Shown here: positions 21,573 through 22,265 of the stretch, in pieces | Layout of the letters: each line of letters begins with the position of its first letter | Numbering within the stretch: the first letter of the stretch is position 1 | DNA from: an uncultured Gemmatimonadales bacterium | GTDB lineage: Bacteria > Gemmatimonadota > Gemmatimonadetes > Gemmatimonadales > GWC2-71-9 | DNA length: 64,000 bases | Direction of reading: 5' to 3' | NCBI GenBank assembly: GCA_963695555.1 | Contig: CAVOGR010000007.1 | Span: 224,001 to 288,000, forward strand | The notes under the pieces: model-generated | Seen by the model: the letters and a program-made list of their open reading frames with translations, nothing else | Databases searched by the model: none | Told to the model about the DNA's origin: nothing | Translations under genes and position numbers: made by a program

Positions 21573-22265
21573 ATGACCGACAAAGAACAACTCAAGTTCT
21601 GGCGCGAGCTGAGAAACCTCCGCGACCGCATCCAACAAGACCCCAGGCTGTACCGGAAGTTCCAGGAGAACCCAACCGAGATTTTCCAGCAGTTTGAGCT
21701 CGATGTGGAGGTACCCGCGGGCCCATTGGGGAAAGAGGGCCGCCGGCTATCCGACTACCTTGACGCGCTCCGCCCGGAAGAACGACCGATCGTCGCGGAG
21801 TCGTTGCTCGAGTTGAGCGTCGCGGATGATATCGGGAAAGTCGCGATCGCACTCGCACTCGCGAATGCAGTCGCCCTGGCCAATGCAGCCGCCAACGCCA
21901 ATGCAGCCGCCAACGCCAACGCAGGGGCCAACGCAAACGCCGGGGCAAACGCCAACACCAATACGAATACGAGTGGGGTGGGGATTGGAGATCTGGTGGC
22001 AAATCCGTGGGCACGCATGGTCCTGGCCTCTGATTTCGCCGAGTCTGCGCTGGCCCGCACGCTGGCCGACCTACACTTGAATCCGGCCCGCCAGAGCGCG
22101 TTGCTCAGGCGTGTGCTGACCGATGACGAGAGTGTTCTGAGTTCCAAGGTGGTCGGCGATGCGGAGTTCCGACTCGCACAGTACTCCTTCCGCGGTACGG
22201 TATTCCAGGTTGAGGGGTTGCTTCGAGGTGACGTGATCGAGGTCGTCAACACCCGGCTCATGTAG
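21573..22265 (+). CDS. RiPP precursor A1: NHLP-like leader, Ala/Asn core, C-terminal follower
   Basis: RBS GGGAGG; leader DPRLYRKFQENPTEIF; core VAIALALANAVALANAAANANAAANANAGANANAGANANTNTNTSG; lies directly upstream of the maturases. Confidence 0.85.
   Translation: MTDKEQLKFWRELRNLRDRIQQDPRLYRKFQENPTEIFQQFELDVEVPAGPLGKEGRRLSDYLDALRPEERPIVAESLLELSVADDIGKVAIALALANAVALANAAANANAAANANAGANANAGANANTNTNTSGVGIGDLVANPWARMVLASDFAESALARTLADLHLNPARQSALLRRVLTDDESVLSSKVVGDAEFRLAQYSFRGTVFQVEGLLRGDVIEVVNTRLM

Follow-up and report, generated by a model that had tools for sequence, protein, structure and literature searches.

What does a bacterial gene make when an uncharged run of Ala and Asn is placed between two domains that appear to be folded? 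The question is raised by a 64,000-nucleotide stretch of an uncultured Gemmatimonadales bacterium (assembly GCA_963695555.1, contig CAVOGR010000007.1, positions 224,001 to 288,000), here called the window. An open reading frame at 21573-22265 on the + strand is translated into 230 amino acids. An earlier note, made from the letters alone, had described a leader of 89 aa, an uncharged core of 46 aa and a follower of about 95 aa, with no double-glycine cleavage site; the translation gives exactly 89, 46 and 95 residues and contains no Gly-Gly. The note had allowed that a stop right after the core might make the follower a separate gene. The leader-core-follower fusion is real: the frame has no internal stop, all 17 homologs from the first search aligned across leader, ladder and follower, and 141 of 193 proteins carry both domains. 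No internal repeat was found between leader and follower. The sequence GGAGG is located at 21557-21561, 11 bases 5' of the ATG; the open frame extends 194 codons 5' of that ATG, and homologs nevertheless begin there. The region 20129-21572 (+ strand) encodes a LuxR/NarL-type regulator and a receiver-like open reading frame that reads in frame into the precursor gene, perhaps via an indel, and a LuxR-type gene likewise lies 5' of the precursor in a Thermus plasmid locus (L036).

Our preferred answer, which we hold to be probable, is that the precursor yields a polytheonamide-like pore peptide, an N-methylated D/L beta-helix that would form within a clamp of two domains and be freed by cuts on both sides. 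The features on which this reading draws are as follows.

21573..22265, + strand: precursor gene, leader-core-follower, 230 aa (translation and homologs)
21573..21839, + strand: leader, 89 aa (predicted helices and weak profile similarities)
21840..21977, + strand: core, 46 aa, residues 90-135, ending at Gly135, with inferred boundaries (composition and conservation)
21978..22262, + strand: follower, 95 aa, Pfam DUF5969 over residues 147-229 (Pfam and predicted model)
22301..24262, + strand: B12 radical SAM C-methyltransferase, TIGR03975 (NCBIfam)
24256..25240, + strand: EpeE/YydG-like radical SAM enzyme, likely an epimerase, end approximate (profile and sequence relatives)
25318..26488, + strand: AerE-like Asn side-chain N-methyltransferase, start approximate (best solved relative AerE)
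30930..31256, + strand: SdpI/YfhL membrane protein, sole match in the genome, likely immunity (profile)
31264..32838, - strand: alpha/beta serine hydrolase with a GHSEGG motif, candidate processing enzyme (Pfam and recurrence)

The core is highly regular. Its 12 Asn residues occupy positions 9, 15, 19, 21, 25, 27, 31, 33, 37, 39, 41, and 43, all of them odd, Ala occupies 19 of the 23 even positions (the remainder are three Thr and one Gly), and no charged residue is present. The Ala/Asn alternation noticed earlier was borne out, whereas the two ladders named with it (N9/15/21/27/33/39 and N19/25/31/37/43) hold 11 of the 12 Asn and leave out N41. Placement of all 12 Asn on one parity had a frequency of 7e-5 in 200,000 core shuffles, and at least nine i+6 Asn pairs had a frequency of 0.003 when the shuffles kept parity. 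The six-rung ladder by itself (0.056 in parity-keeping shuffles) is not clearly beyond chance.

The spacing was conserved across divergent homologs, contrary to the possibility that homologs would be without it. Cores with at least four Asn (81 of 99 representatives with less than 50% follower identity, drawn from 139 proteins) contained 550 Asn pairs at distance 6 vs. 346 ± 10 expected from parity-preserving shuffles, and 398 at distance 12 vs. 280 ± 9. Pairs at distances 2, 4, 8, and 10 were equal to or under expectation, and each odd distance had 11-21 pairs. The excess at distance 6 persisted in 43 cores at 33% identity (249 vs. 147) and held at 40% too; the representatives are still related to one another and the excess carries no formal probability. 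The column of Gly135 is Gly in 92% of 103 aligned rows. Core lengths of close pairs differed by an even number in nine of nine cases and by a multiple of six in four of nine, two of which are possibly assembly collapses; these lengths were given no weight as support. The polytheonamide helix is marked by just this combination of a two-residue parity and stacking at every sixth residue, as in its chain of Asn 16, 22, and 28 (PMC11285071).

The precursor gene heads an operon with C-methyltransferase, radical SAM and N-methyltransferase genes, and the three maturases that had been proposed are all present 3' of it. The C-methyltransferase scored 421 bits against TIGR03975 (cut-off 282). The closest relatives of the radical SAM enzyme are YydG and EpeE (8ai1 at E 1e-13 by profile), and its score against TIGR04078 was 63 bits for the window fragment and 78 bits for an intact homolog, where the cut-off is 300. 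The enzyme is EpeE/YydG-like and not of the PoyD type; TIGR04517 was not among the matches of the intact radical SAM enzymes of loci L032 and L034 at E 1e-6. The motifs CPW, ACCG, and CxxC are conserved, and CxxC aligns weakly to 8ai6. No tool aligned the CC of the ACCG motif to EpeE Cys223, the H-donor to which it may correspond. The best solved relative of the N-methyltransferase is AerE (structure 7RC2; PMC9060474), at E 1e-11 for the window fragment and 1e-17 for the intact L032 enzyme. It retains equivalents of AerE Tyr137, Asp141, and Asn231; AerE Phe234, required for activity, is Leu in the window enzyme, which counts against a pore peptide.

The enzyme genes recur in bacteria that are not related to one another. 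C-methyltransferase, epimerase and N-methyltransferase were found in that order in all four long loci detected through the precursor (the window, L021, L032, and L034); L037 and L038 were found via the methyltransferase, so the unbiased count of the maturase set is four of four. There are 13 loci with leader and follower, counting the window, L002, L034, L037, and L038, and L008 is nearly identical to L032. The C-methyltransferase gene lies 3' of the precursor in 11 of these 13, and among those that reach far enough the epimerase gene was present in seven of seven and the N-methyltransferase gene in six of six. C-methylation is regarded as an accessory step because two loci are without the C-methyltransferase. 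A DUF6399 gene lies between precursor and C-methyltransferase in L017, and in the Rhizobium locus (L034:12778-15269) the match of the C-methyltransferase stops at residue 533, with a transposase-like open reading frame coming next.

The reverse search, in which six of seven methyltransferase-bearing plasmid records were examined, gave three with a family precursor, the Thermus locus L036 and two with neither precursor nor epimerase (L039 and L040), which count against the pore-peptide reading. In these two, the same methyltransferase family occurs at about 10000-11120 within Rhizobium phosphonate loci (PEP mutase and phosphonopyruvate decarboxylase). The precursor of L036 (2599-3504, Thermus aquaticus plasmid pTA14) has a twin-arginine/lipoprotein-like N-terminus, an aromatic-rich Asn ladder and a short helical tail, and P0162 has the same build; the locus contains epimerase, SdpI, N-methyltransferase and serine hydrolase genes and no DUF5969.

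The state of the window copy bears on whether this locus makes anything. In this assembly, the epimerase gene has a frameshift near 24850, with apparently a second one near 25231, and the N-methyltransferase gene has one near 25648, which counts against the pore-peptide reading. A decaying copy that makes nothing, whatever the family does, would be independent of the other models, and we give it a small but real chance. Two of three maturases are frameshifted and the family was not found in 400 genomes of its own phylum, which would fit decay; against it, other window genes look broken as well, and the maturase pieces keep 39-57% identity to the intact L032 enzymes. The frameshifts are probably assembly errors because the essential ileS, one of three control genes, is also split over several frames (rpoB and secA are intact).

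The core and two of the enzymes would, judged by sequence, work like those of aeronamide, while the leader, the epimerase and the position of the core differ. To our knowledge, only a handful of clusters make beta-helical D/L pore peptides, and each of them has an NHLP leader and a PoyD epimerase. Aeronamide A and polytheonamide B share with the window an uncharged core of about 46 residues, N-x5-N ladders, an AerE-like N-methyltransferase and a TIGR03975 C-methyltransferase. The five methylated Asn of aeronamide (25, 31, 37, 41, and 43; PMC11285071) have the same numbers as five window Asn counted from Val90. The known cores are C-terminal and have 5-8 methylated sites, whereas the window core is internal, stands before a conserved 95-residue follower and has 12 Asn. 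Proteusin leaders belong to TIGR03793 (NHLP) or Nif11 and the proteusin epimerase to TIGR04517; the window leader does not belong to TIGR03793, its epimerase is EpeE-like, and it has an SdpI gene and proteases other than those of proteusins. No DUF4135 dehydratase was detected among 29 window open reading frames scanned, and the inferred core begins with Val, not with a Thr cap. Assignment to the proteusins was rejected on leader, epimerase and core position.

A complete aeronamide-type proteusin cluster (L023:1790-12485), with two C-methyltransferases of which one is split, was detected through the same motif and served as a control. It has an NHLP leader (64 bits; cut-off 50.9), a PoyD epimerase (491 bits to TIGR04517), an AerE ortholog, DUF4135 and a trypsin-like protease; the window radical SAM enzyme had no tblastn match in it. 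The window core matches its C-terminal core at 25 of 32 positions, a low-complexity match, and the L023 precursor stops at the Gly right after the ladder.

Other known systems are less close. In EpeX/EpeE (YydF/YydG) of Bacillus subtilis, the radical SAM enzyme is the best sequence relative of that of the window, with similar length and conserved extra Cys motifs; the window enzyme nevertheless falls far under the epipeptide TIGR04078 cut-off. EpeE is reported to invert two residues of a 49-residue peptide (PMC13012085), which counts against the pore-peptide reading. Borosin leaders (SonA/LigA-type) are weakly similar to the window leader, and the window methyltransferase is of the PrmC/AerE-like, side-chain type and is not a backbone alpha-N-methyltransferase.

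The leader was predicted by AlphaFold2 to contain helices at 3-22, 24-32, and 34-40, resembling the start of NHLP/LigA-type leaders, and further helices at 59-65 and 71-81. NHLP leaders are described as three-helix bundles (PMC12537861). The window leader had no match to a Pfam or NCBIfam leader model at E 0.01, aligned with an NHLP leader over 27 columns only, and over its first 60 residues matched SonA/LigA-type chains at E 0.02-0.11. The designation NHLP-like thus stands for the first helices and not for membership in TIGR03793. The follower scored 46.5 bits against DUF5969 (PF19394; cut-off 25) and was predicted to form a strand, two helices and a four-stranded meander; the folded alpha/beta domain suspected from the sequence is supported by a confident AlphaFold2 model. 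Model confidence was high for leader and follower and poor for the core, which would suit a stretch able to fold only after epimerization. For the packing of leader against follower, the models reached pTM values of only 0.48 and 0.57, and the alignment was too shallow for mutual information. The sole Atlas result was DUF5969 (0.83), with no match for the follower. No NHLP or borosin structure was among the best 50 fold rows, and a search of viral folds found none.

The same two domains occur in a thiopeptide cluster. One family member without a ladder is TpdS (ACS83763.1), encoded in the GE2270 cluster; its homolog at 80% groups with PbtX (AGY49584.1) of Planobispora rosea. Against profiles from which the TpdS-like row had been left out, PbtX scored 33 bits for the leader and 51 bits for the follower, with no ladder between; by this profile evidence, PbtX/TpdS is the same leader and follower minus the ladder. 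PMC12309360 reports that no other GE2270 cluster protein is as abundant in the producer as PbtX, for which it proposes no role. It also cites work in which deleting pbtX and deleting pbtM1, the Asn N-methyltransferase gene, had very similar results, with polarity on pbtM1 possible, and its AlphaFold pulldown favoured PbtF, not PbtM1, as partner with low confidence. PbtX/TpdS thus resembles the window protein in leader, follower and the company of an Asn side-chain N-methyltransferase gene, which pbtX directly precedes (PMC3943966, PMC4514598), and is unlike it in a ladder-less middle and a methylated substrate, PbtA, that is supplied in trans. By analogy, PbtX is the best hint that leader and follower may help an Asn methyltransferase; its testable origin and role would be those of a core-less precursor kept as a helper of that enzyme. 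PbtM1 was not named among the best 120 of 144 homologs of the window N-methyltransferase. P0193, which is PbtX-like (51% to PbtX), and P0263, a family methyltransferase, come from contigs of equal length (20145), a hint that their genes may be linked.

The predicted topology of the follower is of the RelE/ParE/BECR type in two independent models, those of the window protein and of PbtX, and it allows an alternative that we consider improbable. Only the leader would be removed, or stay bound as a cis-antitoxin, and the modified beta-helix would anchor in or cross a membrane, with the follower attached to it for toxicity or targeting. The best fold match of the window follower was 6cp9 (Z 7.8, rmsd 3.0, 81 aligned), the top 13 fold rows for PbtX were all RelE/ParE/BECR-type toxins (Z 5.9-7.2), and a tail meant only to be discarded would hardly call for a folded 88-residue domain kept in the 141 proteins with both domains. 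However, all matches had Z below 8 (Z 7-8 is rated by the tool as a possibly common arrangement) and 4-15% identity, no Foldseek match reached E 0.001, and the likeness to toxins such as 6cp9, 1wmi, 3hi2, and ParE is one of predicted topology only, with no sequence similarity. The conserved follower residues comprise a helix motif (Arg173 97%, Gln174 81%, Leu177 87%) and structural Gly and aromatics, with no conserved His. The abundance of PbtX in its producer, the conserved Gly that closes the ladder where NHLP-type cores end, and the reported 0.4 nm bore of the beta-helix (PMC9060474), too narrow for a folded domain, also argue against cargo. No adjoining antitoxin or soluble immunity gene was seen: enzyme genes directly follow the precursor in the window, L032, L034, L037, and L038. 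An extension of this alternative, in which the leader would be a built-in antitoxin, the D/L beta-helix a membrane-entry device, the follower the payload and PbtX a disarmed descendant recruited to GE2270, is a long shot; if true, a ribosomally made protein would here rely on a polytheonamide-type helix for its delivery.

SdpI-type genes farther 3' point to a toxic membrane product. SdpI protects Bacillus subtilis against a membrane-depolarizing peptide. SdpI or DUF1648 genes were detected by profile in five of six long loci (the window, L034, L037, L038, and L032, the last at 28 bits in a gene cut by the contig end), the sixth (L021) has an SdpI-type gene recognized by eye only, and L036, with its ladder precursor of different build, also has one. 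The follower had been suggested as a possible immunity module; the separate gene at 30930-31256 is the better candidate. The serine hydrolase gene recurs in three loci (the window, L032, and L034) and is convergent with sdpI in the window and likewise in L032. Other loci have other peptidases, namely an S8 peptidase in L002 and a peptidase-transporter with another hydrolase in L037. No protease is common to all loci and none was seen in L038, and the 20-37 kb part of the window showed no exporter; both results count against the pore-peptide reading.

Several further genes accompany these. The window contains, at 26484-30930 (+ strand), a class V lanthipeptide-type block (a frameshifted Thr/Pro/Ser/Trp repeat gene, an LxmK-like kinase, a HopA1-family lyase and a short LanC) between the maturases and the sdpI and hydrolase genes. 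These genes (26.5-30.9 kb) were rejected as parts of the core system, having no tblastn match in the other loci; the block may cross-talk with the ladder core at its Thr/Ser-rich end. An aldo-keto-reductase-like open reading frame recognized by eye (32847-33779, + strand; no Pfam match) is divergent from the hydrolase. The L037 locus (7843-18605, Klebsiella sp. plasmid) has in addition genes for an acyltransferase of the HlyC type, for HlyD, for an ABC transporter with a peptidase domain and for a protein of 562 aa without known function, and its product is possibly an acylated, type I-secreted version.

The want of a conserved protease, together with the missing double-glycine site, is also what would be expected if the whole leader-core-follower protein were the product and its internal modified helix a membrane anchor or assembly element, and tandem (P0077) and lipoprotein-like (P0032) versions do exist. 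We think this unlikely: peptidase or hydrolase genes are present in most long loci, SdpI-type genes accompany them, and in several relatives the junction reads Pro-Gln/Arg followed by Thr, as in L023. An all-L amyloid or solenoid-type Asn ladder, with the enzymes acting elsewhere, would suit an alternating parity that ordinary beta-strands also allow, six-residue repeats obtainable by 18-base slippage and a methyltransferase found without a precursor (L039 and L040), but it is very unlikely, given that divergent cores keep Asn at every sixth residue with unrelated residues between (nine rungs in P0080) and that each long locus has epimerase-like and AerE-like genes 3' of its precursor.

The layout, the Asn parity and i+6 spacing, the enzyme neighbours and their recurrence are established; from them we infer the chemistry, clamp, cuts, export and activity of a pore peptide. 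The core is very probably D/L and N-methylated. The EpeE-like enzyme would invert odd core positions (at most 21 residues other than Gly, the 12 Asn among them), the AerE-like enzyme would N-methylate the side chains of up to 12 D-Asn to give i+6 hydrogen-bond ladders, and the B12 enzyme would add C-methyl groups. Leader and follower may together clamp the uncharged core, so that it stays in solution and does no harm, and assist methyltransferase and epimerase in engaging it. Release of the core free of both domains is somewhat favoured; cuts after Lys89 and after Gly135, for which the serine hydrolase is one candidate, would free about 46 residues. The mature helix would form an ion pore in membranes and SdpI would protect the producer. 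AerA with both modifications reportedly stays unstructured without lipid (PMC9060474), which counts against this reading.

If true, the locus would represent a second, larger route to the D/L beta-helix scaffold, with more than 100 natural cores and an EpeE-type enzyme that acts many times. Compact intact loci occur in cultured bacteria (a Rhizobium plasmid and gut Collinsella). What appears new is the link to GE2270: the follower is by sequence DUF5969, common to PbtX/TpdS of that pathway. No description of a DUF5969 leader-core-follower family or of the PbtX link was found in the literature outside subscription papers, and there is a modest chance that such papers already describe the family. 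A family of beta-helical RiPPs, perhaps this one, reportedly goes under the names "origamin" and "OpgD". The SdpI gene hints at an antibacterial product, unlike aeronamide, for which PMC10849128 reports no such activity.

The distribution of the family is sporadic. A profile search at E 0.001 gave 206 matches; the 193 proteins analysed came from the first search, 150 of these matches and later searches. Our own profiles divided the 193 proteins into 141 with both domains, 18 with the leader only, 18 with the follower only and 16 with neither; the last are mostly low-complexity noise, and part of the single-domain proteins are fragments. No member was found in 400 genomes of the phylum of G401 or in viral contigs, and plasmid searches with Asn-poor members gave no matches. 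Of 31 metagenome pattern loci, nine belonged to the family (eight with a follower; the ninth ends inside the core) and 22 did not, and a scan of the genome collection gave one locus from 11 of 64 parts, with mostly low-complexity matches. An archaeal Halocatena plasmid (L041:6434-8035) lacks the N-methyltransferase and has a divergent DUF3784 membrane gene and a related radical SAM gene after one for a protein of 177 aa whose C-terminal core is rich in Ala and Val.

Dereplication at 70% left 109 representatives, of which 25 had fewer than four Asn in the scored stretch, counting against the pore-peptide reading; 75 of the other 84 had at least 80% of their Asn on one parity, and 70 of the 109 had a ladder of at least four rungs. 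Several of the 18 leader-only proteins have a ladder and a short tail without a follower; because of these proteins and the Thermus locus, with a ladder and no DUF5969, the core is taken as the constant part. Asn-poor, Val/Ala-rich cores occur within the same leader/follower frame in P0072, P0073, P0082, P0083, P0091, and P0077, the last with the whole unit present twice. P0032 has a signal-like N-terminus, and one Collinsella-type cluster has 878 members.
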